Assembly: GCA_030618315.1 (NCBI GenBank)
Contig: JAUXDO010000002.1
Coordinates: 1-33,713 of the forward strand
Length of the DNA: 33,713 nucleotides
DNA from: Candidatus Peregrinibacteria bacterium
GTDB lineage: Bacteria > Patescibacteriota > Gracilibacteria > UM-FILTER-43-11
Reading direction: 5' to 3'
Position numbers and translations under genes: made by a program. Shown piece by piece: positions 339-33,713 of the stretch. How positions within the stretch are numbered: position 1 is the first letter of the stretch; the number at the start of each line of letters is the position of its first letter. Under the pieces are notes generated by a model that searched no databases, had not been told where the DNA came from, and saw nothing but the letters and a program-made list of their open reading frames with translations.

Positions 339-3300
339 ATGCTTAAAAACTTAACAAAAATTTGTTCCTCCAGGAAAATTCAAAAATTCTTTTTTGTTCT
401 CCTTTTTCTTGTGCTGATTTTTAGCATATATATCACAATTCCATATCCTTATATTCTTGGAGCTGATGCGCCACAACATTTAAACAAAGTAAGCATAAAT
501 GCGCCAATCACTATGCATTTTAGCCAAAGCATGAATAAGCAAAGTGTTGAAGATAAATTTCAAATACACCCGCAAATAAATGGTGATTTTGTTTGGCCTA
601 ATAAAAAAACACTTGAGTTTTATCCAAGTGAAACATTCAAAATTGGAGATAGGTATAAAATAACTATAAGTTCTCAGGCAAAAAATATTTATAGAAAGTC
701 GCTTGGGTCGAATATTGCGATGCATTTTTTTATTACGGGACCTCCTTATGTAAAATTTGTTTCACCAAATTTTCCAATAGAGAGGCAATTGATAAGCTAT
801 GGAGGTTCTATGGAGAGGCAATCAACAGCCCCTCAAGAGCCTATCAAAAGCCCTTCAATAGAATCCGTTCCTATTATTTCATCGGATCAAGTAATTACCG
901 TTATGTTTGATAGACCGATGGGCTGGTCGGATAATACAAAAATTGATTTACTTCGGATTAATCCTCATGTTGAAGGTGAATATCGATTTCTGGGTATGAG
1001 TGCATTTCAATTTATTCCTGAATCCTGGCCTACCGGCACACGTTTTAAATTAACTGTTCCATCTAATATTCAGGCTCGTGATGGTGGTGAAACTGAAGAT
1101 GAATTTAGTTGGTATATTGAGACATCACCACTTCGCATTGTTAAAACTACTCCTGAAATTGGTGAAGAAAATGTTGGGACTAATACTCCTTTGACAATAG
1201 TTTTTAATCAGCCAATTGATTTAAATCAAATTCAGCCGGGTAATAACTCTTTGATATATCCATCAAACGACGTTGATGCGGATGTTAATCCAAAATCTGA
1301 CGGCTTCTTTAATACGGAAATAATTTACGGAAAAAACTCTCAGGGGATTACTGATAAAGCCATATTGGTTTTTGAGCCTACTTTTTCGTATTTATATGAC
1401 ACTGAATATAAATTTGTTATGAAAGCTGGGCTTTCAGGTAATTCTACGGATGCGATAGATGGCGTCGGGTCGTTAGGAATGAAGCAGGATTATGAATTGA
1501 CTTTTAAAACTACACAGGCTCCTGGTGTAATTGATTTTACAGGTCCATCTGATAAAAATCCGAATATTTTTATCTCATTCTCAACAGATATGACTGTAAA
1601 AGAGATTATGGAACACTTGATGATCAGCCCCGAGCCCCTTTCGCCGATAACGATAATAATGAGTGAAAATAACAGAGAGGCTGAAATTCATTGTAAATTT
1701 GCAGTTAATACAGATTATGAACTTGAGCTGAATGCACCACTAAAAGATATTGCTGGAAATGAAATAAAAAATAGTTTTAAAAAAGCATTCAGGGTGAAAG
1801 ATCCATATCAAAAATTGCAATGGGACACGGGTGATAATCTGGATTTATTTGCAAGAGAAGTTAATCCGGAATTTATTATAAAAAGTAAGAATATTAATGA
1901 GCTTAATTTGGAATTATGTAAGGTATCAGAGCGAAATTTTATGACAACCAATGAGAATCAGAATTGGGAGAACTATAGTTGTTATTCAAACCCAATTTCA
2001 TATAAAATCCATCCGGATAGTGGCTCTGCATTGCTAAATTTGTCCTCTATATTTAATAGAGAATTTCAACCTGGTATATATTATTTTTCAGCAAAAAGTA
2101 GTAATTCTTCCAAAGTCGGAGACAGCAAAAAAATATATAAAATATTTCTGGTTTCTGATACAGCTCTGATTCTTAAAAAATCTCAAAATAGCTTACTTTT
2201 ATGGGCAACAGATATTGTTACAGGTGAACCTGCCGCGCGTATGGAGCTAACTTTTTATAGTTATGATGGAAAAGAAATCGGCAGAGGCGTTACAGATGGA
2301 GATGGTATCTATAAGATTATTCGTGATTATGAAGAAGGAGTATATATTGTTGGAGAACAAAATATTGGTGAGAAAAAAAGATGGACGATGATTTATGATT
2401 TTTGGCTTACCTCTGAGCAAAATATTTCAAGTTCAATAAATTCTGAGTGGATAAAGAATGGTGAACTGCGTGCATATTTAATGTATAACAAAAATGTATT
2501 AACTGCCGGTGACAAGATGGATATTAAGGGCATACTCCGGGTAGATAATGATGCGCAATTTTCTATTCCCGAAGAAAAGAAAGTAATAATTGCAATTGAA
2601 GATAGTCAGCAAAATTTACTGATTGATGAAACTATTGCAATTAGAAGAAATGGATCATTTGACACCTCTATTACAATCCCACCCGATGCCTTTTCTGGTA
2701 ACTACCGCATCGTTGTATATAGCGCTTCTGGTGATAAACTGCAGACGAATGAGTCGGTCATTACTATTAATAGAGAGGATTCCCCCTTTCTTATGAACTG
2801 GATTAATCCCAAAAATGATTATTTTGCGCATGAGACTGTATCTGTAACGCTAAAAGCTAATTATTTTGTTGGAATCCCTGCCTCCAGCCTAAGGGGCTCA
2901 TGGGATCTTTATAGAAAACCGTACTACTTCAATAATTATAAAAACAACTCATTCTATTCTTTTGGTAATAAGGAAAATATTCTCTGTTCCAATGGCGGTT
3001 GCCCTAATGATGAAGAATTTGTTGCCAGTGGTGAATTTAGTTTTGATCCTAATGGCATAGCTCAAATTGTACTGGCAGATAATGAAAGAAGTTATCTTAA
3101 ATCAGAAAATGAATACTATTTAGTAGCAACCGCAAGCAGTGTCAACGGTAGTAAGGTATCAAAATCTCTTAGATTTATTGTCCATAATGGAAAACAATAT
3201 GTAGGGCTTAGCTCCAAGCATTATTTACTTAAACAGAATGAAAGTGCGGAAATTTCGATTGTTGTTTCTGATACCAAAGGAAATTTAATTGAAGATAAAA

Positions 3301-6455: not shown

Positions 6456-6624
6456 TTGTCGTTGGTCGTTTGATTAACCGTTTGCAGTTTATGCGAAGTT
6501 GACCAGTGGTAAAATATCACGAAATGCACCGCTGGGCAATTTGGGCGAGCGAGCTTTGCGACCGCTCGTCCAAAATAGGGCAAAGCTTGTGAGCCGTACA
6601 AACTGCTGTTGTGTGTCTTTCTTA

Positions 6625-7850: not shown

Positions 7851-9182
7851 ATGAACAATATAAATAATGCACAAAATTTAGAAGCAAGCATACCAATTGA
7901 AGTAGATATATCTGATTACGCAAGATCTAAATATCCTGATGGTTCTACCGTGCTTCTTCCGCATAAAGGCAAAGAAATCGAAGCGAAGATAATGCATTTT
8001 AATGAGGAATCCGGAAAATTTAGAGTAATTTGGGAAAAAAATGGGGCTATTAATTCAAAAAATATCAGTCTTGAGGAATTAGATAACTATAACGAAACAG
8101 ATCTTTCGCCAGAAAAACAAAGAGCTGAAGTTTTAAGTATTATTAACAGTCCTTCGGGCTATAAATCCGAATTAACAGAAGATGCTTATACAAGTGTGGC
8201 AGATTTTGCTGAACAAATTGGAGAATCTGGTAACTCTAAATTGCTTGATGGTGAAAACGCAAAAAGTTTGGCTGATGGAATGAGGTCATTTGGATTTGCG
8301 GATTTAGCTCGTATTACGGCATCTACCGATATAGGTGTAGGAAAAACAGAAAATCAAGACCGCGTTATGATAAATAGTAAATTCGGTGTGACAGCTGTAA
8401 TCGATGGCATTGGTGGTGAAGAGGATGGTGGTATTTTTGCACAAATATTCTCAGAAGAACTGGGAACATCACCTCTTGCACCAATACAAGCAGCATATAA
8501 TGCTTTAGAAAAAGCAAAAAAATTAGGATTGAATAAAATGGCAGCAGCCTGCTTCATGTCCGCAAGACTTCACCGTGAAGATAATGGAAAATTGTATTTT
8601 ACCGACATTGTTCAGGCCGGAGATGTAAAAATGATTATTCTGGATGACAATGGAGATGTTTACTGGAGCTCAAGGGATCAGTCACTTGTGGATTTGATAG
8701 CCAATGGTGATGTGACCTATAAGCAATTAGCTACGCAAGTACCTAAAAATAATCCTGTAATGAGAGTTATGAAAGAGAGATCAAAAAAAGGACAAGTGCT
8801 TTTATCAAAAGACGAAGCAATTTATTCCACCCTTAGAAGTAGGGTTGTTAATTATGTTGGAGGTGAAATTGAAGTTGATTTAAAAGATTACCGAGATGTT
8901 CCTGTAAAAAAAGGATACAGGATGATAATGACAAGCGACGGTGTTTCAGATAATTTTACTAATGAAGAAATCGCTGATTTAGTGCGCGGAAAAAGTGCTG
9001 AAGAAGGAATGATAGCCCTTTCAGAATCCACAACTAATAGGATGCTTAATGGAAAAAAGATAATCGAAGAAACCAATAGATTAGGTGGCAGAGCTAAGCT
9101 TGGAAAATTTAGCGATGGATTTAAAACTTTGCCAAAAGCTAATGGTGATAATCGCGGAGTAGTTATTGAAGATGTTTTATAG
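7851..9182 (+). CDS. PP2C-family (PPM) Ser/Thr protein phosphatase with about 150-aa N-terminal extension
   Basis: PPM motifs occur in order: GKTENQDRV, AVIDGIGGEEDG (DGxGG), MTSDGVSDNF (SDGxxD), GDNRGVVI (DN near the C-terminus). The N-terminal 150 aa are unassigned. Confidence 0.8.
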   Translation: MNNINNAQNLEASIPIEVDISDYARSKYPDGSTVLLPHKGKEIEAKIMHFNEESGKFRVIWEKNGAINSKNISLEELDNYNETDLSPEKQRAEVLSIINSPSGYKSELTEDAYTSVADFAEQIGESGNSKLLDGENAKSLADGMRSFGFADLARITASTDIGVGKTENQDRVMINSKFGVTAVIDGIGGEEDGGIFAQIFSEELGTSPLAPIQAAYNALEKAKKLGLNKMAAACFMSARLHREDNGKLYFTDIVQAGDVKMIILDDNGDVYWSSRDQSLVDLIANGDVTYKQLATQVPKNNPVMRVMKERSKKGQVLLSKDEAIYSTLRSRVVNYVGGEIEVDLKDYRDVPVKKGYRMIMTSDGVSDNFTNEEIADLVRGKSAEEGMIALSESTTNRMLNGKKIIEETNRLGGRAKLGKFSDGFKTLPKANGDNRGVVIEDVL

Positions 9183-9235
9183 CTTTCAAATATAGCCTTA
9201 ATTTGGATTTTGTATAATTTAATGTGCTTTTTTAT

Positions 9236-9263
9236 TTGACATATCTAAAATTTTCAGTATAAT
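9236..9263 (+). promoter_or_regulatory. sigma70-type promoter (TTGACA-N16-TATAAT)
   Basis: TTGACA 9236-9241, TATAAT 9258-9263, 25 nt upstream of ATG 9288. Confidence 0.6.
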
Positions 9264-10675: not shown

Positions 10676-10789
10676 AATATTTAGTTAATTAATATTGCCG
10701 AAAGACAGATTAGGTTTCATTTTATAAAAAATATCGATAAATATCAAATGTTATCCAAAATAATCTTTTAATAAAAACAAAATAATTAT

Positions 10790-10817
10790 TTGACAAATTT
10801 AAAAAAAACTGTACAAT
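10790..10817 (+). promoter_or_regulatory. sigma70-type promoter (TTGACA-N16-TACAAT)
   Basis: TTGACA 10790-10795, TACAAT 10812-10817, upstream of ATG 10849. Confidence 0.6.
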
Positions 10818-12691: not shown

Positions 12692-15508
12692 TTATTTTTT
12701 GTGAGGCTGTTTACCTCCTTCTTTTTTGTGACTGTCGTGTTTTGACTTTTGGTTATCGGGTTTCTTTTCGGATTTGTTATCCTGTTTTTGATTATCGGAC
12801 TTCTGATTATCAGGCTTACCTCCCGGCTTTTTATTATCTCCGCCAGAGGTGGATCCGCCTGAGGAGGAGGATTTTTTATAATCCCTCTTTCCGTTATCAT
12901 CTTTTCCGCCTTCAAGTTTTTTTGGTGGCTGAGCCCATCTAAGGATTTTATCTTCAACAACTTCACGTGGTTTACAGTAGCGTTCACGGGATAAACGGAC
13001 TATTTTTTCTCGTCGCTCTTCATCTATATCAACATCCTGAGGAGGAAGTGTAGAAAGTGAAAATGTCTGACTCGGCATTCCGTCAATCATCAATTTTGTA
13101 TAACAATTATATTTAGGGAGAGTGATTATGTCGTTTGGAAGAACTTCTTCAGAGAATTGATTTGAGAAATACTCCGCATCATCAAAACCTACTTGGAAAC
13201 AAAGACTTGTACCCACATTACCGAACACTGCATCGCGAACTTCATCCGGCATTTGCGCTACATACTGATTGGCCATTGTAAGATTAAGTTTATATTTACG
13301 AGCCTCAGAGAGGATTGTTGCGAAAGCATCTGTGGCGAAATTTTGGAATTCATCTACATATAAATAGAAATCTGTTCTATCCTTTTCTGCAGTATCCGCA
13401 CGACTCATCGCATCAAGCTGGAACTTGGTAATTAGCATTGAACCGAGAAGCGAAGAATTATCTTCACCGATTTTACCCTTGGAAAGATTCACAATAATTA
13501 TTTTCTTACTATCCATCATAAAACGGATATTTACAGTAGATTTAACCTGACCGACTATATTTCGTATCATGCTGGATGATAAAAACTGACCAACTTTATT
13601 TTGAATTGGCGACACTGCCTCAGTTCTTTGCCTATCCTGCCACTTATCAAATTCATCTTCCCAGAAACTCCTTACCATTGGATTTTGAATCTTTTCTACG
13701 ACCTTTTTTCTATAACTTTTGTCTACAAGTATTCTCATGATTCCAAGCATGGAAGTATTTGGATATTCCACGAGAGAAAGTAAACAGTTACGAAGTATGT
13801 GTTCAAGTCTAGGCCCCCAGCTTTCTGCATACATCTTTTTAAATACACCAAGTAATCCTGATGCCATCAGATTCCTCTTATTTGGATCATCAACATCTTC
13901 CAGCATATTAAAAGCAAATGGATGAGAAACGTCTGATGGGTCGAGAATAACAACATCATTAATTCTGTGAGATGGCACTGAACTGATAACCGTTTCTGCA
14001 AGATCACCGTGCGGATCTATTACGGCAACACCTTTTCCTGCCTGCACATCAGACTGCACCATGTTTTCCAAAAGTACGGACTTACCCATACCGGTTTTAC
14101 CGATAATATATATGTGTCTTCTTCGGTCAATCGTTTTTATTCCAAATAATTCACGATTGCCTCTAAAATTAGTTTTACCGATAATCGTCAATTCATTATC
14201 CGGAATAGTACCAGGAACCGGAAGGTCATTTGGCGGTTCAAGTTTTCTGGATGTAACCCAATGAACGTTTGGAGTTTTTACTTCCATTGAAGGCATATGA
14301 TATAGTGTGGCAATTTCTTCAACATTCATAAACATCGGGTCTATAACCGCACGCTTTTGGTAACGCTTTAGTATCTGAGAATTGTTTTTATTAATTCTGG
14401 CAATTTCAAAACCATTCAGATTTGGCAGATCAAATTGCTTAAGACTGCCGAAAATTTCATTTATTTTAACCTCTGCCATATCAATGTTTTCATGACGAGG
14501 CATATAAACTATCCGGATATTTGTTTCAAATGTTAACCGCGTGACTTTGTCTACAGCTGCGGATATTGGATCTTCGCGGTCATGAGTTCGTGACACCTCC
14601 TCGCCTAAATCCTGATCTGAACTACTCTTCATGCTTAAATTAGATGTTTTAAACCCACGAATTGACCAAAAAAACAGATAAAGAGGACTATAAAATAACC
14701 GCTTCCAAAAACCTCTGGCTAGATAAATATTTGTTGCGAACTTATTAAGCCAAAACACGTTATTAAAGAGTCCGTTGCTGACTATTTTTAAACATTTTAA
14801 ACCTCTCTTTCTCCACCAATCTCCTGTCGGCTTCATTGTAATCTGAATCCAGGCTTGCTCATCTGTAGCGTTTAATTTGGAGAGTGTTGCTGTAATACCA
14901 GCAAGCGGTTCGGTTGCAATTCTTGTTAACTTATCTTCAAATTGAGGATATCTTTTTATAGGATATATATCCGGGTCATCAAATTTAAGTTCCGCAGTAA
15001 CTGCGATACGCATTTGTGGCTTCTTTTTCTGGATTACTGCCGGCAAGGTTGCCCCTTTCGGTGCTGGAGTGTCATCGACAATTTTCTCACTTGCCTGAAC
15101 CAGTTTTTCATATGCGGATAACTGAACGCTTGTATAATCCTCCACTTCCTCAATTTCCACATCTGGATACTGTGCATAAATCTGACTTTCAATTACATTC
15201 TTATACTTTTTTGGTACCCAGATAAAGAACTGTATTTGATTATTTACATTCGCAATTTCCAAACTGATTCTTGGCCTTGTCCTTCCAGCCAGATAATCCC
15301 AAATACCATGATTCTCTCCGATTCCATGAAGAGCGGAATATATATGTTCAGCAACAATAGGCCCCTTTTCATTTAATCTGGAAACAGCGACACGAAAAAC
15401 CACAGATTCTGTTGAGTTTTCATAAGAAGTCCGACGAATACTAAGATAAATTCGGAATATTATATACAGGGCTATGATGGCGAAAATTACGAGAAGAGGA
15501 TTTATCAT
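12692..15508 (-). CDS. TraD/VirD4/TraG-like (type IV coupling protein-like) P-loop ATPase, membrane-anchored, with Lys-rich disordered tail
   Basis: N-terminal TM helix (LLVIFAIIALYIIFRIYL). Walker A is IIGKTGMGKSVLL and Walker B-like is FYLYVDEFQNF. The ARKYKLNLTMANQYVAQM block resembles the TraG/TraD C-terminal region. The last ~77 aa are low complexity (KPDNQKSDNQKQDNKSEKKPDNQKS). Confidence 0.8.
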   Translation of the reverse strand: MINPLLVIFAIIALYIIFRIYLSIRRTSYENSTESVVFRVAVSRLNEKGPIVAEHIYSALHGIGENHGIWDYLAGRTRPRISLEIANVNNQIQFFIWVPKKYKNVIESQIYAQYPDVEIEEVEDYTSVQLSAYEKLVQASEKIVDDTPAPKGATLPAVIQKKKPQMRIAVTAELKFDDPDIYPIKRYPQFEDKLTRIATEPLAGITATLSKLNATDEQAWIQITMKPTGDWWRKRGLKCLKIVSNGLFNNVFWLNKFATNIYLARGFWKRLFYSPLYLFFWSIRGFKTSNLSMKSSSDQDLGEEVSRTHDREDPISAAVDKVTRLTFETNIRIVYMPRHENIDMAEVKINEIFGSLKQFDLPNLNGFEIARINKNNSQILKRYQKRAVIDPMFMNVEEIATLYHMPSMEVKTPNVHWVTSRKLEPPNDLPVPGTIPDNELTIIGKTNFRGNRELFGIKTIDRRRHIYIIGKTGMGKSVLLENMVQSDVQAGKGVAVIDPHGDLAETVISSVPSHRINDVVILDPSDVSHPFAFNMLEDVDDPNKRNLMASGLLGVFKKMYAESWGPRLEHILRNCLLSLVEYPNTSMLGIMRILVDKSYRKKVVEKIQNPMVRSFWEDEFDKWQDRQRTEAVSPIQNKVGQFLSSSMIRNIVGQVKSTVNIRFMMDSKKIIIVNLSKGKIGEDNSSLLGSMLITKFQLDAMSRADTAEKDRTDFYLYVDEFQNFATDAFATILSEARKYKLNLTMANQYVAQMPDEVRDAVFGNVGTSLCFQVGFDDAEYFSNQFSEEVLPNDIITLPKYNCYTKLMIDGMPSQTFSLSTLPPQDVDIDEERREKIVRLSRERYCKPREVVEDKILRWAQPPKKLEGGKDDNGKRDYKKSSSSGGSTSGGDNKKPGGKPDNQKSDNQKQDNKSEKKPDNQKSKHDSHKKEGGKQPHKK

Positions 15509-16894: not shown

Positions 16895-18337
16895 ATGTTT
16901 TCGCATGATAATCCAATGGTGGCTCGAATAGTGGCTCAGCTTCGCGTGGCTCGAATAGTGGACCACAACTGGAGCCACCATATGAGCCACAACTTGAGCC
17001 ACAATATGAAATACTTTATTCAAACCTACGGTTGCCAAATGAACTATTCGGATTCCGAGAGGCTTGTTACTGTGCTTAAAAAACTGGGATATGAGGAATG
17101 TGATCATTATAGTAAGGCTGATCTTGTGATTCTGAATACCTGTTCGGTTAAACAAAATGCTGATAATAGGATCTATGGGCTTGGGGAACCATTTGCAGAA
17201 CTTAAAAAGAAAAACCCGAAACTCAAAATTGGTATTACTGGTTGTGCAATTCGTAAGTGCACTGGTATTCGGGGGGAATGCAAAGAGGAGATATTCAGGA
17301 GAATGGAAACTGTTGATTTCGTGTTCCGCATTAAGGATTTAATGCAATTACCGGACATTTTAAGAAAGCTCCATCATGTGGAAGGTGCAAATGAAATAAA
17401 AGATCTACTTCACTACTTCGATATAAATCCAACTATCACTAATATTGCTCAGGTTTTCATACCGATTATGGATGGCTGTAATAATTTTTGTTCATATTGC
17501 ATTGTTCCGTACGCAAGAGGGATGGAGGAGAGCAGAAATATACGGGAGATATTGGATGAGGTAGAAAAAATGGCTAAAAGAGGTGCAAAAGAAATAAATT
17601 TGGTAGGACAAAATGTAAATACTTTTAAGCCATCAGATGTCGATTCTAAATCAGATGAAACACCATTTACTCAATTGCTTAGAAAAATTGATAAAGTTAA
17701 TGGAATTGATAGAATTCGATTTTTTACAGTTCATCCAAAAGACATGACGGATGATGTGATTAATTTGTATGGGGAATTAAAGAGCATGGTCCCACATCTT
17801 CATCTACCCGTTCAATCCGGCTCTGACGCGGTTTTAAAAAGGATGAATAGACTTTATACGGTTGAAAGATTTAAAGAATTGGCAAAAAAAATGAGAAAAC
17901 GCATTCCAAACATCTCTATTACAACTGATATTATTGTTGGTTTTTGCGGTGAGACGGAGGATGAATTTATGGAAAGCTATAATTTGATTAAAGATGAGAA
18001 AATAGACCTTGTTTATGTATCAAAATATTCTGAAAGACCTGGAACATCAGCTCAAAAAGAGCAAAAAGATGATATTTCGGATGATATTAAGAAAGACAGG
18101 TTTGAGCGGATTACTGAGGTGATGAAAGATGTTTCACATGAATACAATCAGCAATTTTTAGGTAAAACAGTACAAGTTCTTATTGAAAAAGTGGATAAAG
18201 GATTCGCGAGCGGTAAGATCCCTGAATTTAAAGTGTGCAGATTTCCATCTGATAATCAAAATTTGATTGGAGAGTATGTAAATGTGAAGGTTAAAAAAGC
18301 TATGGAATGGTGTCTTGACGGAAGCGTTGCTTCCTAA
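16895..18337 (+). CDS. miaB: tRNA-2-methylthio-N6-dimethylallyladenosine synthase (methylthiotransferase MiaB)
   Basis: Canonical N-terminus MKYFIQTYGCQMN, plus the NTCSVK and GITGCA cysteines of the UPF0004 domain. Radical SAM CNNFCSYC motif and a C-terminal TRAM-like domain are present. The conserved core begins at ATG 17006. The ORF is open from ATG 16895 (GGAG 4 nt upstream) through a 37-codon repeat-derived extension, so the true start is ambiguous. Confidence 0.9.
   Translation: MFSHDNPMVARIVAQLRVARIVDHNWSHHMSHNLSHNMKYFIQTYGCQMNYSDSERLVTVLKKLGYEECDHYSKADLVILNTCSVKQNADNRIYGLGEPFAELKKKNPKLKIGITGCAIRKCTGIRGECKEEIFRRMETVDFVFRIKDLMQLPDILRKLHHVEGANEIKDLLHYFDINPTITNIAQVFIPIMDGCNNFCSYCIVPYARGMEESRNIREILDEVEKMAKRGAKEINLVGQNVNTFKPSDVDSKSDETPFTQLLRKIDKVNGIDRIRFFTVHPKDMTDDVINLYGELKSMVPHLHLPVQSGSDAVLKRMNRLYTVERFKELAKKMRKRIPNISITTDIIVGFCGETEDEFMESYNLIKDEKIDLVYVSKYSERPGTSAQKEQKDDISDDIKKDRFERITEVMKDVSHEYNQQFLGKTVQVLIEKVDKGFASGKIPEFKVCRFPSDNQNLIGEYVNVKVKKAMEWCLDGSVAS
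16916..17005 (+). repeat. 12-bp-periodic dyad repeat array (GTGGCTC x3, GTGGACC / GAGCCAC x3) at the miaB 5' end
   Basis: GTGG(C/A)(T/C)C at 16919, 16931, 16946 and 16958. The complement GAGCCAC is at 16972, 16984 and 16996. The 12-nt unit GTGGCTCGAATA occurs twice exactly. Confidence 0.8.
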
Positions 18338-18340
18338 TTC

Positions 18341-18438
18341 AAAATTAAAGATTGAAGATTGAAAATTCATGTAGTAATAAGACATAGTATAATTTAGAAT
18401 AATCTTGAATCTTGAATCTTCAATTTTTAATTTTTAAT
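18341..18438. repeat. AT-rich inverted repeat made of 7-nt tandem units downstream of miaB (possible terminator)
   Basis: AAAATTAAAGATTGAAGATT (18341-18360) pairs 19/20 with AATCTTCAATTTTTAATTTT (18415-18434). The right arm reads AATCTTG AATCTTG AATCTTC AATTTTT AATTTTT. Confidence 0.6.
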
Positions 18439-18440
18439 AT

Positions 18441-18590
18441 AAAATAAGTTATCTGTTTTTACAAAAAATGAAGCAAAATAAGTTATCTGTGCTTGTTGCA
18501 TTTATGGCTAAGATAAGTAGTTACTTGTATTTTAATTTTATATATGATATAATTAAAATGTAAATTTTTGCATCAAAATAAGTTATCTAT
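18441..18590 (+). repeat. three direct copies of AAAATAAGTTATCT(G/A)T upstream of and overlapping the fic start region
   Basis: Copies at 18441-18456, 18475-18490 and 18575-18590. A degenerate AAGATAAGTAGTTACTT lies at about 18509-18525. Confidence 0.75.
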
Positions 18591-18594
18591 ATTA

Positions 18595-19506
18595 ATGAAA
18601 TATATCGATAGAAAAGTTATCAAAGGGAAGGCTCAGTATTATCTTCAGTATCAAGGATATTCAAAATATATTGGTTCATTCCTGCCTGTCAGCCTAAAAG
18701 ATGAACTTTTAGATTTTTTTATTGAGTTATCTGAAGAAGAAAATGATAACCTCCCTAAAAATATAAAAAATGAATTTAAATATGGTGGCTTAGATAAATT
18801 AGAAAAATTACATTATTTTCATATTGCCCTGAATCATGACCTTCTAAAAAAGGAACATGACATCTTTTATAATGAATTCATAAAATTATATACTTACCAC
18901 TCAAACAGGTCAGAAGGATCAAGGACAACAAAAAAGGATATCGATAAATTTGTTTCAAAGAATATAAGAGTTCCGAAAACCAAAACTGATCAGGAAATTT
19001 TTAATTCATTTTTAGCGTTTGATTTCGCATTATCCGATGAAATGAAATGGAATATGAAATCCATAAAGCATATTCATTCTCTTTTGCTAGATGGCATTGA
19101 CCCAATGATAGCGGGAAAATGGAAGACTGAAGATAATGTCGCTCCCAATAGTCAACCGACATCCAGCTATAAAAATGTACAAAATGATATAAAGAATCTT
19201 ATAAAATGGCTAAAAAATGAATCCAGAAAAAAAACATATCCTCCAAAAATTGCCATTCAATTTTATGTAAAATTTGAGCATATTCACCCGTTTTTAGATG
19301 GAAATGGCAGGGTTGGCAGGATTTTACTTAATGCAATCCTCCATAAATTCAATTATCCACCTATTATATTTTTTAGCACAAATCATCAGCAACACTGCAC
19401 AGCTATGACATCTGCCATTAATGGCAGATGTGGAGGAATTAATAAACATTTTTTACAACAAGTTAAGAAAACAAATGATTCCTTATTTGCTAAAATTTTG
19501 CCATAA
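18595..19506 (+). CDS. Fic family protein (class II, intramolecular inhibitory motif)
   Basis: Fic core motif HPFLDGNGRVGR. The upstream SNRSEG matches the inhibitory [S/T]xxxE[G/N] motif. The ORF track starts at TTG 18568; I prefer ATG 18595 because the TTG extension is made of an upstream repeat copy. Confidence 0.85.
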   Translation: MKYIDRKVIKGKAQYYLQYQGYSKYIGSFLPVSLKDELLDFFIELSEEENDNLPKNIKNEFKYGGLDKLEKLHYFHIALNHDLLKKEHDIFYNEFIKLYTYHSNRSEGSRTTKKDIDKFVSKNIRVPKTKTDQEIFNSFLAFDFALSDEMKWNMKSIKHIHSLLLDGIDPMIAGKWKTEDNVAPNSQPTSSYKNVQNDIKNLIKWLKNESRKKTYPPKIAIQFYVKFEHIHPFLDGNGRVGRILLNAILHKFNYPPIIFFSTNHQQHCTAMTSAINGRCGGINKHFLQQVKKTNDSLFAKILP

Positions 19507-19527: not shown

Positions 19528-20622
19528 ATGAAGATAGCAATAGTAACAGACTGGCTTACGAATTATGGTGGCGCGGAAAGCGTTATATCAGCTTTTCATG
19601 ATCTTTTTCCGGAAGCACCGATATACACGACAATGTACAGACCAAAGAACATGAGGGAACTTGGAAAATTAAAAAATGTTAAGACGACATGGCTTGATAA
19701 AATTCCGACATCTAAGCATCAGTATCTGCTTAGCTTGATGCCGACAGCGGTAGAAATGATGGATTTGGATGAATATGATATTGTACTTAGCAGTTGTCAC
19801 AGTGTAAGCAAGGGGGTGATTACAAAGCCAAACACATTGCATATCAGCTATTGTCATACGCCTATGAGATATGCATGGGAAAGTTGGGATTTTGAAACAA
19901 GGCTGAAAAAATTCCCATCAATTTTTCATCCAATGATACGCAAGCAGATTGGGAAAATCAGAGAGTGGGATTATTGTGCGGCGCAGAGAGTTGATAAATA
20001 CATTGCAAACTCATCACATATCGGTAAACAGATTAAAAAGCATTATAAAAGAGATTCTGATGTAATTTACCCACCAGTTCATACCGAAAAATTTACTCCG
20101 GCTACCAATCCAACAGAAGATTTTTATTTAGCGGTTGGCAGACTTATTCCTTATAAGAAATTCGATTTAATTGCAGAAACTTTCAACAAATTAAAAAAGA
20201 AATTAAAGATAGTCGGAACAGGTCCTCAATATGACAAAATTAAAAGCATGGAAAGTGAATATGTGGAAGTTTTGGGCTATGTAAGTGATGGAAAACTGAC
20301 TCATTTGTACCAAAATTGTAAAGCATTCTTATTTCCGCAATTGGAGGATGCAGGCATTGTGCCACTTGAGGCAATGTCGGCTGGCAGACCCGTTATTGCG
20401 TTAGACAGAGGTGGTAGTTTGGATACTATGATAGACGGCAAAACGGGTGTTCTTTTTTCTGAGCAAACAGTTGATAGCTTATCGGATGCGATTAGCAGAT
20501 TTGAAAAGATGAAATTTGATTCAAAATTTATCCGAAAACATGCTGAGGAGTTTGATGTGGAGATTTTTAAAACCAAAATCCGGGATTATATTCAGGAAGA
20601 GTGGGAGAGGTTTAATAAATAA
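19528..20622 (+). CDS. glycosyltransferase family 4 (GT-B, retaining)
   Basis: C-terminal EDAGIVPLEAMSAGRPVIALDRGGSLDTMIDGKTGVLF contains the EX7E motif and nucleotide-sugar-binding pattern typical of GT4. Confidence 0.85.
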   Translation: MKIAIVTDWLTNYGGAESVISAFHDLFPEAPIYTTMYRPKNMRELGKLKNVKTTWLDKIPTSKHQYLLSLMPTAVEMMDLDEYDIVLSSCHSVSKGVITKPNTLHISYCHTPMRYAWESWDFETRLKKFPSIFHPMIRKQIGKIREWDYCAAQRVDKYIANSSHIGKQIKKHYKRDSDVIYPPVHTEKFTPATNPTEDFYLAVGRLIPYKKFDLIAETFNKLKKKLKIVGTGPQYDKIKSMESEYVEVLGYVSDGKLTHLYQNCKAFLFPQLEDAGIVPLEAMSAGRPVIALDRGGSLDTMIDGKTGVLFSEQTVDSLSDAISRFEKMKFDSKFIRKHAEEFDVEIFKTKIRDYIQEEWERFNK

Positions 20623-20824
20623 TACTGCTTCGCGTGGGGCAGGCTATCGCCGTTGGGCTGCGAGATTACTCGCGTAGGGCTGGGCTATCGCCCGTGGTTC
20701 TATTTTATTATGGGTGGATACTTTTAATAAACCTGTCAAAATAAAATAGAACCACGTCCTGTAATCAGGATAGCCCTACGTTTGTACTCAAACAGCCCCA
20801 CGTCGCTACTGCGACAGCCCTACA
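20620..20824 (+). repeat. GC-rich dyad-symmetric intercistronic element, copy A (REP/BIME-like)
   Basis: Fills the whole gap from the TAA stop of the GT4 gene to the next ATG. It has four GT(G/T/A)GGNC heads, an AT-rich centre and four inverted heads, with mini-hairpins between them. It shares 18-19-nt exact runs with the reverse complement of 29726-29946. Confidence 0.85.
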
Positions 20825-21109
20825 ATGAAATGGAACGTTATGACAAAAGAACAATCAATCAAAGAACTAAAGACAATTCCCTCAATCGGCAAAGCTCTTG
20901 CAGAGGATTTGTATAATATTGGAATCAAAAAAATATCAGATTTAAAAAATAAAGACCCTGAAGAATTGTATTTCAAGTCCTGTGCATATGACAATCAGCA
21001 ACTTTGCCGTTGTGTTTTATATACTTATAGATGTGCGATTTATTTTGCCTCCACAAAAAACCCCAATCCGGAAAAATTGAGGTGGAATTATTGGAAAGAT
21101 AACGCTTAA
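20825..21109 (+). CDS. helix-hairpin-helix domain protein (Cdd1 / 'pathogenicity locus'-like)
   Basis: LKTIPSIGKALAEDLYNIGIKKISDLKNKDPEELY is an HhH-like motif, followed by a Cys-containing block (CRCVLYTYRCAIYF) as in the small Cdd1-like family. This call rests on my recollection of that family. Confidence 0.5.
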   Translation: MKWNVMTKEQSIKELKTIPSIGKALAEDLYNIGIKKISDLKNKDPEELYFKSCAYDNQQLCRCVLYTYRCAIYFASTKNPNPEKLRWNYWKDNA

Positions 21110-27965: not shown

Positions 27966-28424
27966 ATGCCCTTTAATAAAAAAATAAAAATGAATAATAA
28001 AATAGATAATTCGTTTTCAACCTCCTCGTCAGACAATCTTGGAAATTTTGATCATGCTCTAAGAAGTGGTTCGATGAGTGATATTCTTCCCAAACATGGC
28101 AATGGTTTTACATTTACAGCTCCGTATGGGATTGTCTCTGTTAAGCCAACTTCTGAAGCAATAGAGAAATTAATAGCTCTTATGAAAACATTTAATGTTT
28201 TTGAAAAAGACAATGAATCCATTCTGGATTGTTGGGTAAATCGTAAAGAATTGGAAGCTGGAGGCAATGTAAAGTGGGAATCCGGCCGTTATACGAGCAG
28301 GGCTGAAGATAAAATTACTTTGGAAGAGTGGATAGATGAGTCAAAAGTTGTTCCAATAAATAAAATGCAACAAAAAAGAAAGGAAATTGAAAACACTCTT
28401 GAGCATGTTAATCATGGCATTTAA
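27966..28424 (+). CDS. hypothetical protein (152 aa)
   Basis: ORF preceded by TTGAAT-N16-TATAAT with a TG extension (27926-27953). No family recognised. Confidence 0.5.
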   Translation: MPFNKKIKMNNKIDNSFSTSSSDNLGNFDHALRSGSMSDILPKHGNGFTFTAPYGIVSVKPTSEAIEKLIALMKTFNVFEKDNESILDCWVNRKELEAGGNVKWESGRYTSRAEDKITLEEWIDESKVVPINKMQQKRKEIENTLEHVNHGI

Positions 28425-29725
28425 CCAAATACCAATAAGTTTGGATTGATAAGAAGAATTAATCCGAGTGCTACCATAATAGTACCGCCTATTAAATGAG
28501 ACGCGCGGGTGTATTTGTGAGTGGTAAGACCTATGCGATCAAAGCTATACATAGCAATACCAAATATAATCAAGTCATCGACCATGTACATAAATATATA
28601 CATTGCGTTGTACATTTGCTTTCCTGCCCATGTCAAACCGCCAATATCAAGAATTTTTGTGAATGTCTGAGGTATCCCGACAGAGCATGCGAATTCAATA
28701 ATATTTACTGAGAACGCAAGCATTAAAATCCCAAGCATGGTAATAATTGTCATTGGACCTGTTGCATATGCCTTAATTTTTTCGGATGTTCTGCGTTTAG
28801 ATTTCAAACTGCCGACTTTGCATGCAGTATCTTCTTTATAGAATTTATATAAGAAGAATAATCCCGCTGATATAGCTACCAGACCTACTATAGGGGTAAC
28901 AATTGCATCCATTCCTACAAAATCCCATGCAGTCATCCAAACGTTTAGGATGAGATAATACATAACAGCTTCTGCAAAAATGAATATTCCTGCCATCTGG
29001 AACATGCGCTTTCGTGAACCGGCTTCCATCAAAATTGTTAAAAAGAGGACTAGTACCCACATTGCACATGGATTGAAGCCATCAACAAATCCTAAAATAA
29101 CAGAGAGAATCGGTAGTGAATATTTTTGAACATCCACTGGACCGATGAATGGGACAGTAACCCAATAATTAACATCATCTATTGCACATCCGATTTCCTC
29201 TCCGTCGATATTACATGTACCGGCAGAGGTTTCAATATGACTGCTTCCGCCAGCTAAGATAAACTCCTCAAATGTATATTGGGTCTGGCCTTTGGCATTG
29301 TCTACCAATGCACGTATTTTTTTACCTGTTGTTTTTTCTGTATCAAATCCCTGAAGAACAATACTATCTATTATTGTAATTGGAGTAACTTTTGGTATAC
29401 CTTCGAGTTCTGTAAGTTCTAAAAAATGACCCTTATGAATAGGGTCACCTATGTCATGAAAAACAACAATCAAATCTCCTCTTTCTTTTTGTAATTGATT
29501 TAAGAATTTTTTTTCAGCACGGCAATGATTGCAATTATCTCTTTCAAAAATTTCAATACGTACTGTTTCAGAGGCTGGAACAACGCAGTTTTCAGCAATC
29601 TCTTCGGCTACAGAGTCATTTATTGTTTCGACAGATGTGTCTTCGGCAGAATAGGCAAAAGGAGTCATCCCGCTTAGCGTGACGACCCCGATTGTTAATA
29701 TGATTAGTAGATTTTTGAGTTTCAT
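28421..29725 (-). CDS. fusion of secreted glutaredoxin/thioredoxin-like CxxC domain with DsbD/CcdA-like transmembrane thiol-disulfide transporter domain
   Basis: Signal peptide, then a thioredoxin-fold-like segment with CNHC (FERDNCNHCRAEKKFL). A polytopic membrane domain follows with Cys in TM segments (GFNPCAMW, EFACSVGIP), as in the DsbD_2/CcdA families. Confidence 0.7.
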   Translation of the reverse strand: MKLKNLLIILTIGVVTLSGMTPFAYSAEDTSVETINDSVAEEIAENCVVPASETVRIEIFERDNCNHCRAEKKFLNQLQKERGDLIVVFHDIGDPIHKGHFLELTELEGIPKVTPITIIDSIVLQGFDTEKTTGKKIRALVDNAKGQTQYTFEEFILAGGSSHIETSAGTCNIDGEEIGCAIDDVNYWVTVPFIGPVDVQKYSLPILSVILGFVDGFNPCAMWVLVLFLTILMEAGSRKRMFQMAGIFIFAEAVMYYLILNVWMTAWDFVGMDAIVTPIVGLVAISAGLFFLYKFYKEDTACKVGSLKSKRRTSEKIKAYATGPMTIITMLGILMLAFSVNIIEFACSVGIPQTFTKILDIGGLTWAGKQMYNAMYIFMYMVDDLIIFGIAMYSFDRIGLTTHKYTRASHLIGGTIMVALGLILLINPNLLVFG

Positions 29726-29946
29726 GGTTCTGTTCGGTTACGAACGTGGGCCTGCTGTCGCGTGGGCCTGTTTGAGTACAAACGTGAGCCTGTCCTGATT
29801 ACAGGACGTGGTCCTATTTTTATTATGATTAGTTGTATTACTAATAACAATAAGATAGTACCACGCGAGTAATCTCGCAGGCCCACGGCGTTACTACGCC
29901 AGGTCCACACGAGGTAATCCGAGTAGACCCACGCAAAGCAGTATTA
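29726..29946 (-). repeat. GC-rich dyad-symmetric intercistronic element, copy B (REP/BIME-like)
   Basis: Homologous to copy A in reverse complement. It begins (in gene orientation) on the TAA stop of the dsbA-like gene and ends at the ATG of the Grx-DsbD-like gene. Heads are at 29746, 29762, 29784 and 29808; inverted heads are at 29858, 29880, 29902 and 29926. Confidence 0.85.
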
Positions 29947-30663
29947 TTTAGCTAATTCCTCTTCAATTAAAGCTTCAAATGCAGCAAATGGCTGTGCGCC
30001 AGAAAGGAATCTTCCGTTTATAAAGAATGCAGGTGTACCTTGTACTCCGTAGCTTGAACCTTCCTTGGCATCAGCATCAACCTCGTCTGAGAACTTCTCT
30101 GAATCTAAACAATCTGCAATATCATAGCCCATATCGGATGCATACTTTTTTAAGCTGTCAGAATCAAGAGCTTGTGTATTTTCAAAAAGTTTGTCGTGGT
30201 ATTTCCAATAAGCCTCATCACCACCTAATTCATGTACACATTCTGTAGCCATTGCAGCAGGTTTTGCATTTTGATGAAATCCAAGAGGGAAATCACGGAA
30301 AACATATTTAACTTTTCCTGTATCTATGTATTTCTTTTGAATTTCTGTAAGCGTTTGATCTACATAACGTTTGCAGAATGGACATTGATACTCAGAAAAT
30401 TCGATAATTGTTACTGGTGCATTTGCATCGCCTTTAATGGCATCATCATCGATACTTACATCAATCGGTTCTGTTGGTGCAGGTGGCGGAGTGTTTTTCT
30501 CCTGTTGCTTCTTTACATAAGCTTCAATACTAACTTCAACTTTTTCATTAAAGTTTTCTTCTGCATGAAACTGAGCAGAACTAACTGTGGTGTAAACTGA
30601 AACAGCTAAAGCAATAACTGAAAGTGCAAGTGCAACAGATAAAAGTTTCTTATTATTAAGCAT
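29944..30663 (-). CDS. DsbA/BdbD-like thiol-disulfide oxidoreductase, membrane-anchored
   Basis: N-terminal anchor LLSVALALSVIALAVSVY. Thioredoxin_4-type block APVTIIEFSEYQCPFCKRY with the CPFC active site. Confidence 0.85.
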   Translation of the reverse strand: MLNNKKLLSVALALSVIALAVSVYTTVSSAQFHAEENFNEKVEVSIEAYVKKQQEKNTPPPAPTEPIDVSIDDDAIKGDANAPVTIIEFSEYQCPFCKRYVDQTLTEIQKKYIDTGKVKYVFRDFPLGFHQNAKPAAMATECVHELGGDEAYWKYHDKLFENTQALDSDSLKKYASDMGYDIADCLDSEKFSDEVDADAKEGSSYGVQGTPAFFINGRFLSGAQPFAAFEALIEEELAK

Positions 30664-31344: not shown

Positions 31345-33713
31345 ATGAACAAACATATGACAATTCATAAAAAAATGTTTTTAATCGGTGCCATTGTTGC
31401 ACTGATAGGTGTTTCTTTTATAAGTTTCAAAACTTATCTACAAACACAGGCTATTGCTGTAATTACCCCATGTGCCATGGAAGATTATGGCAGCACTGGT
31501 AATGTTGATGTATGGAAAGACGGTTGTATAAAATATAACTGCTGTAGTGATTCGCTCGCTTGTTCCACCACATTACTTACCGATTCAAATGGAGCATGTA
31601 CCAATTGGATACTAGATGGTGCTGATAAAGAAACATGCGCAGACGTTATTTATAAGCATAAAAGCGTTTGTCCAAATCTTATTCCGTTTTCATCATCTCA
31701 GGGTTGTATACCCGGATTAAAATGTTTGACAAACGACGAATGTTTTGACGGCAAATGTGTAAATATCACCCCTCCAGCATGTGAGTATGCTGTAGATCTA
31801 GAACAAGATTCTTCTTTAACTTGTGAAACAATTATAAAGCTGAATCCATGTGCTAGTATTTACGGTATTGGGACTACAACCGAATGTATTGGCGTTTCTG
31901 ATCCTTACCCTACTAATACTAAAGTTGTTTGTACTGGTGACAATGTAACTGATGTATTTTGCAGTCTGTTCCAGGAAAATCTAGTAGATGCACTATTTAC
32001 ATTATCAAAACCATCTGAATGTAACTTTGTTCTTTCTCCAGACGTATCATGTTCTCAATTAGATAACTCTGGGATTTGCGATACATTATGGGGGCCAACA
32101 ACACAACAGGCCTGTAAAGAAGATGTAGTAAATGGAATAACTAATTTATTTTGTGTCGGTGATAATGTAGGCGAAAACAAATGTACTACACTACCTGCTA
32201 AAATTACAGACACTATATTTTATAATGCACAAGCAGGATCTTGCATATGCCCAGGTGGAGATGTTTGTGGTGACGGTCAGATCACTGGTAGTGAAGAATG
32301 TGATATAAAAGCTAACCCAACTGGTTGTAAAGACACACATGACTGTATTGAATGTCAATGTATAGAGGCACCAACTCCATCTTGTTCTAATTATAATTTA
32401 GTTGCGTTATGTAAAGGTTTATCGGATATAAGCTGTGAGAATTCTTATGTTGAGGCTCTTCCAAATGATTTTCGTATGTGTGACTTAATTTATGATTTAA
32501 TAGGGAACACATCCTGTGTTATAGGAACACGGACCTGTGAAATGCCTGTTTGCGAAGAAGGTGCAATTTGCCAGATAAACGACGAATGTTATGGAGGAAT
32601 TTGCGAAGGTGAAAAAGATTATAGGTGTAATTACACACTGATAGAAGGAATTACATGTGATAATTCATTGCTTATTGATGCCTGTGTTAAAATTTATGGA
32701 AGTGAAGTGGTCCAAACCTGTTCGGATGATACTCTTCCAGGTGATAAACTTGGTGCATTGCTTAGTTGCACAGGCCCTGATGTTTATGTAAATGCTCAGA
32801 ACTGCAAAGTGATTGATACATATGTAGTAGATGCTCTGTTGAATAAAGGTATAGCAGGAAGTTGTACTAAATGCCCTTCAGTTTGTACTGATAACGATGG
32901 AGATAAATATTATGCGCAAGATAATTGTGGAACACCTGTAGATTGTGATGATAATGATCCAAAAATACATCCTGATATTCTTGATTCAGGATGTGATAAT
33001 ATTGATAACAACTGTAATGGTCTTATAGACGAAGATTATCTTCCTTACACATGTGGAATTGAATTCTGTGAAAGTTTAAGCATATGTGAAAAAGGTCAAA
33101 CATCTTGTACGCCTTTAGATCCAGTTGCTTTTTATCCAGACTCCGATGGTGATGGCTTTGGTATAAAGAGTGAACCCATTTTAACCTGTTCCCCTATTAC
33201 CGGCTATGTAAGCAATGCAGATGATTGTGATGATAAGAATGCAAATATATATCCTGGTGCTCCTGATGTATGTAACGAATATGGCGTAATAGTAGACATG
33301 GGTTGTGGAGACGGTTATGACGATTTGAACTGTAATGAATACTGTAAGGATAACGATATGGATGGATATACAATTGATAAGATGCCGGAAGACTGGGATG
33401 GTAAATATAGCTCTACATGCCCTTGGGTTATAGGAAACGGCGATTGTAACGATAAGAATGCAAATATATATCCTGGTGCTCCCGATGTATGGGGCGACGG
33501 AATTGATACAAATTGTGACAATATTGTTTGTGGCGTCTACAATAAACAATATATAAAGGATGTAGCTTGTTCAGAAACACCTATTGTAGTAAATAACGAC
33601 GATGAGCTTGCTGCTTATTTGAAAGACTATGGTTATAACGGAATTACTTATTCTGGTCTACTTATTAAGTACCATGTAAATCAAACAAATATAGACATTC
33701 ATTCTCCATGTGA
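31345..33713 (+). CDS. cysteine-rich membrane-anchored/secreted repeat protein with MopE-type putative metal-binding motifs (partial, runs off window end)
   Basis: Not in the ORF track. My own translation from ATG 31345 gives 789 codons with no stop. N-terminal anchor MFLIGAIVALIGVSFISF, with well over 100 Cys. CGDGQITGSEECD resembles the Myxococcus-type Cys-rich repeat. Three D.DGDG...DCDD.N..I.PGA.D.C..IDN.C.. units match the MopE-like putative metal-binding motif. A near-identical 48-nt duplication lies at 33223-33270 and 33442-33489. The antisense track ORFs at 33181-33549 are spurious. Confidence 0.8.
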   Translation, partial: MNKHMTIHKKMFLIGAIVALIGVSFISFKTYLQTQAIAVITPCAMEDYGSTGNVDVWKDGCIKYNCCSDSLACSTTLLTDSNGACTNWILDGADKETCADVIYKHKSVCPNLIPFSSSQGCIPGLKCLTNDECFDGKCVNITPPACEYAVDLEQDSSLTCETIIKLNPCASIYGIGTTTECIGVSDPYPTNTKVVCTGDNVTDVFCSLFQENLVDALFTLSKPSECNFVLSPDVSCSQLDNSGICDTLWGPTTQQACKEDVVNGITNLFCVGDNVGENKCTTLPAKITDTIFYNAQAGSCICPGGDVCGDGQITGSEECDIKANPTGCKDTHDCIECQCIEAPTPSCSNYNLVALCKGLSDISCENSYVEALPNDFRMCDLIYDLIGNTSCVIGTRTCEMPVCEEGAICQINDECYGGICEGEKDYRCNYTLIEGITCDNSLLIDACVKIYGSEVVQTCSDDTLPGDKLGALLSCTGPDVYVNAQNCKVIDTYVVDALLNKGIAGSCTKCPSVCTDNDGDKYYAQDNCGTPVDCDDNDPKIHPDILDSGCDNIDNNCNGLIDEDYLPYTCGIEFCESLSICEKGQTSCTPLDPVAFYPDSDGDGFGIKSEPILTCSPITGYVSNADDCDDKNANIYPGAPDVCNEYGVIVDMGCGDGYDDLNCNEYCKDNDMDGYTIDKMPEDWDGKYSSTCPWVIGNGDCNDKNANIYPGAPDVWGDGIDTNCDNIVCGVYNKQYIKDVACSETPIVVNNDDELAAYLKDYGYNGITYSGLLIKYHVNQTNIDIHSPC

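Follow-up and report, generated by a model that had tools for sequence, protein, structure and literature searches.

The 33,713-nt stretch of a Candidatus Peregrinibacteria contig analyzed here (the window) contains two copies of a GC-rich intercistronic element, copy A at 20620-20824 on the forward strand and copy B at 29726-29946 on the reverse strand. The element is real, discrete and non-coding. Each copy lies in a gap between two genes of the same strand; the copies are on opposite strands of the window and are oriented identically relative to their flanking genes. The original prediction, made from the letters of the sequence alone, had described copy A as a dyad-symmetric repeat with a homologous copy 9 kb away, and all of its coordinates, motifs, heads and mini-hairpins proved correct when both segments were re-read. 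The flanking gene pairs are unrelated between the two sites:

19528-20622 (+): GT4-family glycosyltransferase, upstream of copy A (Pfam)
20825-20839 (+): 15-nt spacer between element A and the probable Cdd1 start (homologue starts)
20840-21109 (+): Cdd1/HhH-like protein, downstream of copy A (Pfam, homologues)
29944-30663 (-): DsbA/Thioredoxin_4 protein, upstream of copy B (Pfam)
28421-29725 (-): 434-amino acid protein without a Pfam match, downstream of copy B

Because these genes are unrelated, the copies are not remnants of a duplicated coding region; that candidate was rejected, and the view of the element as a discrete repeat stands. Across relatives, the flanking genes belong to the conserved syntenic core. 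Element A was predicted to fill the whole gap from the GT4 stop codon to the next ATG. It does begin at that stop codon, but the closest Cdd1 homologues are 89 amino acids long, and three of them begin ATGACAAAAG or ATGACAAAGG (in short, ATGACAAA(A)G). The true Cdd1 start is therefore probably the ATG at 20840 rather than that at 20825, so the start codon would lie about 15 nt beyond the element.

Composition and anatomy of the two copies

The gaps holding the copies have GC contents of 0.50 (A) and 0.49 (B), compared with 0.356 for the window, which bears out the predicted GC richness; other intergenic gaps in the window range from 0.10 to 0.37 with one exception, and both copies are outliers among them. 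Four exact modules of 18-20 nt (TAATACTGCTTYGCGTGGG, CTGCGAGATTACTCGCGT, CCACGTCCTGTAATCAGGA and ACGTTTGTACTCAAACAG) are common to A and B. Each occurs exactly twice in the window, against a chance expectation of 0-0.05 even when three mismatches are allowed. The longest blocks shared by the copies measure 60 nt and 31 nt, each 90% identical, and the former has an E value of 8e-15 (blastn-short). Copy A is also present on the Logan contig L003, and the two arms of copy B on the Logan contigs L004 and L115. Thus, an assembly artefact is ruled out, as both copies and one orthologue are present in independent assemblies.

The element is built from units of about 22 nt, each a 14-nt mini-hairpin followed by an 8-nt head, repeated with a period of 21-24 nt. 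In one orientation the unit can be written ...CCCAC / G-NNNN-TA(A/C)(T/C)-NNNN-C / AG-SCCCAC; the left arm has the mirror orientation, with GTGGGSCT heads and ATTA-type loops. An AT-rich centre separates three to four units of one orientation from three to four in mirror orientation. The parts of the two copies are as follows:

20620-20638 (+): copy A leader TAATACTGCTTCGCGTGGG, including the GT4 TAA stop (20620-20622), one mismatch to the leader of copy B
20634-20700 (+): copy A left arm, with heads GTGGGGC, GTTGGGCT, GTAGGGCT and GTGGTTC and mini-hairpins GGC-TATC-GCC, GCGAG-ATTA-CTCGC and GGGC-TATC-GCCC
20694-20755 (+): copy A centre, a 16-bp AT-rich stem GTGGTTCTATTTTATT/AATAAAATAGAACCAC with an AT-rich loop of about 30 nt
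20750-20824 (+): copy A right arm, with heads GAACCAC, AGCCCTAC, AGCCCCAC and AGCCCTAC and mini-hairpins GTCCTG-TAAT-CAGGAT, GTTTG-TACT-CAAAC and GTCGC-TACT-GCGAC
29928-29946 (-): copy B leader TAATACTGCTTTGCGTGGG, including the DsbA-like TAA stop (29946-29944)
29860-29929 (-): copy B left arm, an irregular local hairpin GGTCTAC...GTGGACC, then GGCGT-AGTA-ACGCC, head GTGGGCCT, GCGAG-ATTA-CTCGC and head GTGGTAC
29803-29864 (-): copy B centre, an imperfect AT-rich stem-loop
29726-29812 (-): copy B right arm, with GGACCAC, GTCCTG-TAAT-CAGGAC, AGGCTCAC, GTTTG-TACT-CAAAC, AGGCCCAC, the closing strand GCGACAGCAG, GCCCAC, GTTCG-TAAC-CGAAC, AGAACC

The ATG at 29725 follows directly on the right arm of copy B, which is independently confirmed by L115. 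The copy B leader pairs with CCCACGCGACAGCAG (about 29770-29750), closing the predicted structure, and the centre of copy A gives a 17-nt self-inverted blastn match. Eleven of the 13 units in A and B together are clean hairpins with stems of 3-6 bp and 4-nt loops, drawn from about eight different stem sequences. Three mini-hairpins are identical between the copies (GCGAG-ATTA-CTCGC, GTCCTG-TAAT-CAGGA and GTTTG-TACT-CAAAC); the others are unrelated, and the copies differ in module order. The predicted dyad symmetry holds for the 8-9-nt heads and the central stem, which are complementary, but the arms are not inverted copies of each other, and the mini-hairpins differ across each junction (e.g. 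GGGCTATCGCCC vs GTCCTGTAATCAGGAT). The 19-nt leader was likewise found to match between the copies, but the TAATA at its 5' end is also present at empty orthologous sites, and for that reason may be ancestral context rather than part of the element. In the blastn alignment with L106 the copy A leader matches at 16 of 16 positions, and L106 differs at the next base.

A third GC-rich intergenic gap lies at 6456-6624, between convergent genes (169 nt, GC 0.47, minimum free energy (MFE) -55.5 kcal/mol). It has a head-like motif, CGTTGGTC, directly after a stop codon, as well as the 8-mer GTTTGTAC, and gave no significant blast match to copies A or B; in L006 and L008 the orthologous gap is shorter, at 76-80 nt. 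This gap may be a decayed or a different insertion.

Predicted fold, conservation and orthologous sites

Folded as sense-strand RNA, copy A has an MFE of -99.3 kcal/mol (z -10.3) and copy B of -95.8 kcal/mol (z -8.6). In the predicted fold the left-arm heads pair with the right-arm heads, giving a stack of near-perfect four-way junctions that ends in the 16-bp AT-rich helix and its loop. Enforcing an idealized ladder of this kind yields -98.1 (A) and -95.7 (B) kcal/mol, which is 1.2 and 0.1 kcal/mol above the MFE. The antisense RNA reaches -92.1 (A) and -92.5 (B) kcal/mol, so that the sense strand folds better by 3-7 kcal/mol, a small advantage. Essentially the same branched fold is obtained for the sense strand with DNA parameters (z -8.8 for A, -8.7 for B), and all six mini-hairpins of copy A form in the DNA-parameter MFE structure. 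Neither copy contains a consistent T-run or sigma-70 match that would mark an intrinsic terminator or an internal promoter.

Covariation was counted on seven distinct hairpin cores that were in register, because whole-unit MAFFT alignments put stems of differing length out of register. Standard pairs fill 94.3% of the stem cells in these cores, versus 51% in shuffles and 21-43% in slid controls. Double-sided changes occur at all five stem pairs, none of 500 shuffles reached the observed score, and the first two loop bases, TA, are invariant. The head helices also differ in a compensatory manner between the copies (CGTAGGGCT/AGCCCTACG in A, CGTGGGCCT/AGGCTCACG in B).

We recovered 11 related loci through the flanking proteins; the Peregrinibacteria DNA available for comparison amounted to 172 kb. 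By the MiaB-like enzyme of the window, which shares 84% identity with proteins recorded under Candidatus Peregrinibacteria or Patescibacteria group, the host is a bacterium of the candidate phyla radiation. At site A (GT4-Cdd1) none of the six relatives examined (L006, L103, L104, L109, L111 and L113) carries the element. In four of them (L006, L103, L111 and L113) the spacer is about 36-53 nt long and holds a common simple GC-rich hairpin, (A/C)CCC(T)GAAGGCGCGC..., whereas L104 has an 83-nt compound hairpin and L109 lacks Cdd1. The simple hairpins lie at 12535-12572 in L006, 12294-12375 (-) in L111, 8517-8568 (-) in L113 and 48-95 in L103; that of L006 is a perfect 19-bp palindrome, and the stem changes among the four look compensatory. 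As no T-run follows, this hairpin is not a classical terminator. The simple hairpin appears to be the ancestral occupant of the junction; given its presence and the absence of the element in relatives, copy A would be a lineage-specific replacement of it.

Site B (DsbA to the next gene) was compared in L106 and L107 (one population), L114, L111/L113, L108-L110 and L006. The same element is found in L106 and L107 only, whose DsbA is 84% identical to that of the window. The DsbA of L114 is also 84% identical, and this locus has a 12-nt tandem repeat in place of the element; L111/L113, L108-L110 and L006 have unrelated short spacers. Copy B thus has a counterpart in one relative and none in five others, and presence and absence are mixed among equally distant relatives at this site. 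Sequencing runs SRR14923477/78 hold the population of the window, and SRR29278633/34 that of L106. Such polymorphism, for which the original prediction had proposed looking, is the pattern expected from a duplicative or insertional element. The tract of L114 (1074-1162) is TAGTCCACCAAT repeated four times, and L108-L110 have a low-complexity GTGACTC...ACACGAC dyad (L108 10727-10808); the spacer downstream of DsbA is hypervariable, and both of these tracts are rich in head-like GTG/CAC motifs.

The comparison with L106 brought out a property that had not been anticipated, the strong conservation of the element relative to the adjacent genes. The left arm of element B is identical at 88 of 92 positions (95.7%), compared with 90.3% for the CsoR-like gene, 79.0% for DsbA (58.8% at third codon positions) and 73% for the CsoR-DsbA spacer, making the element the best-conserved stretch of the site B locus. 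Two of the four substitutions form a compensatory pair in the local hairpin (U-A to C-G), one changes G-C to G-U, and one falls in the leader. Because the element is so much better conserved than its neighbours, the comparison points to selection acting on the fold rather than to a neutral selfish insert.

Several other features of the surrounding DNA were recorded. Between MiaB and GT4 lies a Fic-domain gene (18568-19506) that the syntenic L006 lacks and that L111 has on the other strand, a small variable insertion beside the element-bearing junction. Directly 3' of MiaB, a 33-nt AT-rich inverted repeat, 88% complementary with a 36-nt spacer (18337-18438), occupies a 257-nt AT-rich gap that also holds direct repeats. 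VirD4/TraG-like coupling-protein genes (DUF8128 plus TrwB/DUF87) are found near these loci, at 12692-15508 in the window and 7309-9849 in L108; a second VirD4/TraG-like gene stands directly upstream of the DsbA region in L108, L110 and L111, and synteny around site B is accordingly rearranged. The open-ended last open reading frame (ORF) holds repeated segments of about 50 nt (GATTGTGATGATAA...TATCCTGG) at 32884-33491; translated, these would give a repeated Cys/Asp-rich motif.

Searches for further copies and competing explanations

Searches of genome, metagenome, viral, phage and plasmid collections with the probes used returned no further copy. An exact 19-mer, CCACGTCCTGTAATCAGGA, gave chance-level hits only against 185,579 GTDB species genomes: one coding match and one lone hairpin from Niastella, within chance for 596 Gb. 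The latter (L001 3405-3452 (-), a metagenome-assembled genome) is a long hairpin downstream of a gene, GTCGTGCCACG-TCCTGTAATCAGGA-GC-CGTGGCACGAC, which includes the exact 19-mer of module R1 flanked by CCACG/CGTGG. A generalized head-spacer-head-spacer-head probe retrieved 94 loci from JGI metagenomes, all of them unrelated tandem repeats or an apparently eukaryotic conserved segment. Three probes against IMG/VR recovered only L005, with a tandem repeat of 22 nt, and L105, with a lone hairpin; neither is related to the element. The former (560-625 (-), GGCCCACGTTAGGGGACAACCA) has an element-like head and period without hairpin spacers, a resemblance that is probably a coincidence of probe design. 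A phage or plasmid origin was rejected, as blastn found no match in phage and plasmid collections. Rfam returned no match at the gathering score anywhere in the window, and permissive scans of both copies gave only weak miRNA and thermometer hairpin matches far below threshold, which agrees with the expectation that this is not a known RNA; tRNA and tmRNA genes are absent as well. Diversity-generating retroelements, retrons and integron cassettes were rejected as well, since no reverse transcriptase or integrase is encoded in the window, the copies are located in non-coding DNA and their neighbours belong to the syntenic core.

Our preferred reading, to which we give a probability of about 0.5, is that the element is a lineage-restricted, modular, duplicative and structured intercistronic element of a candidate phyla radiation (CPR) bacterium, Candidatus Peregrinibacteria. 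Unit covariation, compensatory head changes and conservation above that of coding DNA indicate that its fold is under selection. The shared modules were copied between two unrelated loci, and the orthologous sites show that the element has been gained or lost among close relatives. When the element is single-stranded, the heads of its arms would pair and the mini-hairpins protrude. The near-perfect four-way junctions formed in this way would make a very stable ladder, with the stop codon of the upstream gene close to the start codon of the downstream one. Co-transcribed with its two-gene unit, it would form a stable structural block in the mRNA, which could act as a barrier to 3'-to-5' decay or as a processing site, stabilizing the upstream cistron. 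In an organism whose translation starts on AT-rich leaders lacking Shine-Dalgarno (SD) motifs, the same block could also damp translation of the downstream cistron or insulate it. Functionally, the element would replace the simpler hairpins that relatives carry at these junctions. Site A may have been reached by a duplicative event at the DNA level, from a B-like or a third copy; a single-stranded DNA copying mechanism of the REP/RAYT type is possible, and such a route is compatible with the DNA-parameter fold and the mirror-symmetric loops.

Whether such an element would act in the transcript or in duplex DNA can be judged from several observations. We favour the transcript because in relatives some hairpin is nearly always present at the corresponding junctions, because the gene leaders of the window are AT-rich with an SD-like motif in only one of 26 genes, and because one substitution changes G-C to G-U and the sense strand folds slightly better. 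Gene starts with AT-rich upstream regions include those at 7851, 9288, 19528 and 21136, and several sigma-70-like TTGACA/TATAAT pairs occur in the window (e.g. 9232-9263 and 10786-10817).

A number of points weigh against the duplicative, structured element that we favour. The copies seen are two paralogous ones plus one orthologous, and the family that was predicted is represented by these three: a third locus is absent from the 172 kb of Peregrinibacteria DNA, and GTDB genomes, JGI metagenomes and IMG/VR gave no matches with the probes used. Nor was the mobilizing enzyme found; the RAYT or IS200/IS605-type gene that the REP parallel had suggested is not borne out within the window, where no transposase domain, RAYT/IS200-type included, occurs among the ORFs. 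The copies have no clear target-site duplications or terminal inverted repeats, and comparison with empty sites suggests that the whole ancestral spacer was replaced at both sites rather than simply interrupted. The high conservation towards L106 could reflect recent recombination between populations. All five Logan contigs that reach an element stop inside it; extra copies that branch the assembly would fit this, and a drop in coverage at a strong hairpin would fit it equally well, so that these breaks could come from the hairpin rather than from repeat copies. Finally, an RNA-level role is something that we infer.

The strongest competitor, which we consider possible but doubtful, is a dedicated, non-mobile, cis-acting structured RNA that serves as a binding platform for one RNA-binding protein or as a defined RNase processing site. 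Here, purifying selection and vertical inheritance would maintain the structure, and the likeness of A and B would stem from one ancient duplication plus shared function. Conservation above the flanking coding DNA with structure-preserving substitutions fits this explanation, as do the invariant TA of the loops, the small folding advantage of the sense strand, the three mini-hairpins that stayed identical in sequence while the heads around them diverged with compensation, and the retention of some hairpin at the same junctions in relatives. However, relatives that are just as close lack the element (L114 at site B; L103 and L006 at site A), the element belongs to no Rfam family, and its modules are not collinear between the copies. 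Moreover, left-arm loops complement right-arm loops (ATTA vs TAAT), which fits mirror symmetry at the DNA level better than recognition by one RNA-binding specificity.

A further proposal, that the element is an undescribed class of functional structure rather than selfish DNA, a self-folding ladder with perfect four-way junctions under purifying selection in Peregrinibacteria that acts as a scaffold or coupling device, seems to us unlikely. If true, its 8-bp rungs and orthogonal 5-bp hairpins with TA-initiated tetraloops would make a modular scaffold for a dedicated hairpin-binding protein, or a device that, by bringing stop and start together, couples or insulates the translation of two cistrons in an organism without SD motifs.

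We regard as very unlikely a protein-binding array on double-stranded DNA, of iteron, centromere or origin type, in which each side of the AT-rich centre carries four GTGGGSCT sites at intervals of about 22 bp, or two helical turns, in mirror orientation and the hairpin potential is incidental. Heads spaced regularly at 21-24 bp in direct arrays, mirrored across an AT-rich core, and loops that are mirror-symmetric at the DNA level would suit such an array, but the spacers between heads covary so as to keep intramolecular pairing, which duplex binding does not need, and one substitution yields a G-U pair on the sense strand. Origins and partition sites do not usually occur as two copies 9 kb apart, wedged from stop to start between housekeeping-type genes, and the placement of both copies is unlike theirs. 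Independent expansion of hypervariable, slippage-prone spacers, with A and B alike through convergence or gene conversion of GTGG/CCAC-rich tracts, is highly improbable: site B spacers do differ in almost every relative and are often CAC/GTG-rich (L114, L108-L110), and the irregular left end of B resembles the ancestral L006 spacer, but convergence cannot yield exact matches of 18-20 nt in four modules, nor a 60-nt block that is 90% identical, and the stems differ among the units within a copy, so the units are not recent slippage products.

Repeated non-coding DNA is unexpected in CPR/Patescibacteria, whose genomes are small, streamlined and gene-dense. That an element of about 200 nt and about -97 kcal/mol separates a stop codon from the next start and is conserved above the adjacent coding DNA suggests a contribution to operon expression, and stable intercistronic structures would act unusually directly where translation starts on AT-rich, SD-less leaders. 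A regular four-way-junction ladder with mutually different hairpins is distinctive for a natural RNA or single-stranded DNA and is of interest for RNA structure. The element further offers a concrete signature with which CPR genomes could be searched, both for a repeat family and for an enzyme that might partner it.

Relation to known repeat systems

The original prediction had likened the element to the repetitive extragenic palindromic (REP), bacterial interspersed mosaic element (BIME) and REPIN repeats. These are GTAG-tagged palindromic repeats of Proteobacteria and other phyla (PMC3733652, PMC3116915); a survey of REP sequences lists eight phyla, CPR not among them, and head-to-tail tandems are reported as absent or under-represented (PMC3733652). 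REPs number tens to thousands of dispersed copies in a genome, mainly as inverted (HH/TT) dimers, and lie 3' of ORFs between unidirectional or convergent genes (PMC3733652). In a REPIN, two REPs that are inverted copies form one long hairpin, and the cognate RAYT gene, which encodes an IS200/IS605-like Y1 HUH transposase, usually has REPs on its flanks. The parallel holds as an analogy of position and unit design. Like REP and BIME sequences, the element pairs a short hairpin with a GTNG-type tag in units of about 22 nt, within the 20-40 bp of REP units, and has clustered, facing units able to form a larger stem-loop. It likewise lies just 3' of a stop codon between same-strand genes, is GC-rich relative to intergenic DNA, is polymorphic for presence and absence between relatives, and as a stable 3' structure has a likely consequence at the mRNA level. 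Membership, however, does not follow. The tags are mostly GTGG (GTAG once, GTTG once) and lie inside heads that are predicted to be paired, in contrast to the unpaired GTAG/CGTC of REP; the stems are 3-6 bp with a fixed 4-nt loop; and each arm has three to four head-to-tail units, with only whole arms facing each other, rather than inverted dimers. Unlike the inverted REP pairs of REPINs, the arms are not inverted copies. There are two copies in 33.7 kb, no RAYT gene in the window, and the host is a CPR bacterium. Our literature search found no paper on REP-, BIME- or MITE-like structured repeats in CPR/Patescibacteria, in agreement with the suggestion that such elements are undescribed for these genomes.

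The element also differs from miniature inverted-repeat transposable elements (MITEs), which have terminal inverted repeats and a target-site duplication: its ends are TAATACTGCTT... and ...CAGCCCTACA (A) or ...CAGAACC (B), and no direct duplication flanks either copy. Integron attC sites are imperfect dyads directly after a stop codon, with a GTTRRRY core and a function that depends on the folded single strand. One head of the element, GTTGGGC, fits this core, and the dyad directly follows a stop codon; unlike attC, the order of core and inverse core is reversed relative to the gene, each arm has multiple heads, the flanking genes are syntenic core rather than cassettes, and the window has no integrase.

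The BOX elements of Streptococcus pneumoniae, 100-300 nt long, are intergenic composites of the form boxA-boxB(n)-boxC in which the number of internal modules varies. Their terminal modules pair to close a stable fold, they have no transposase of their own, and they are co-transcribed from intergenic positions and able to affect the expression of neighbouring genes. BOX modules measure 45-59 nt, occur in more than 100 copies per genome and form no regular four-way-junction ladder. The Peregrinibacteria element has a similar modularity and size, a predicted fold closed by its terminal parts and an intergenic position in which it would be co-transcribed and could affect neighbouring genes, and it encodes no transposase; its sequence and phylum are unrelated and its units are 22-nt hairpin-plus-head modules. 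We describe the element as analogous to REP, BIME and BOX repeats rather than as a member of any of these families.

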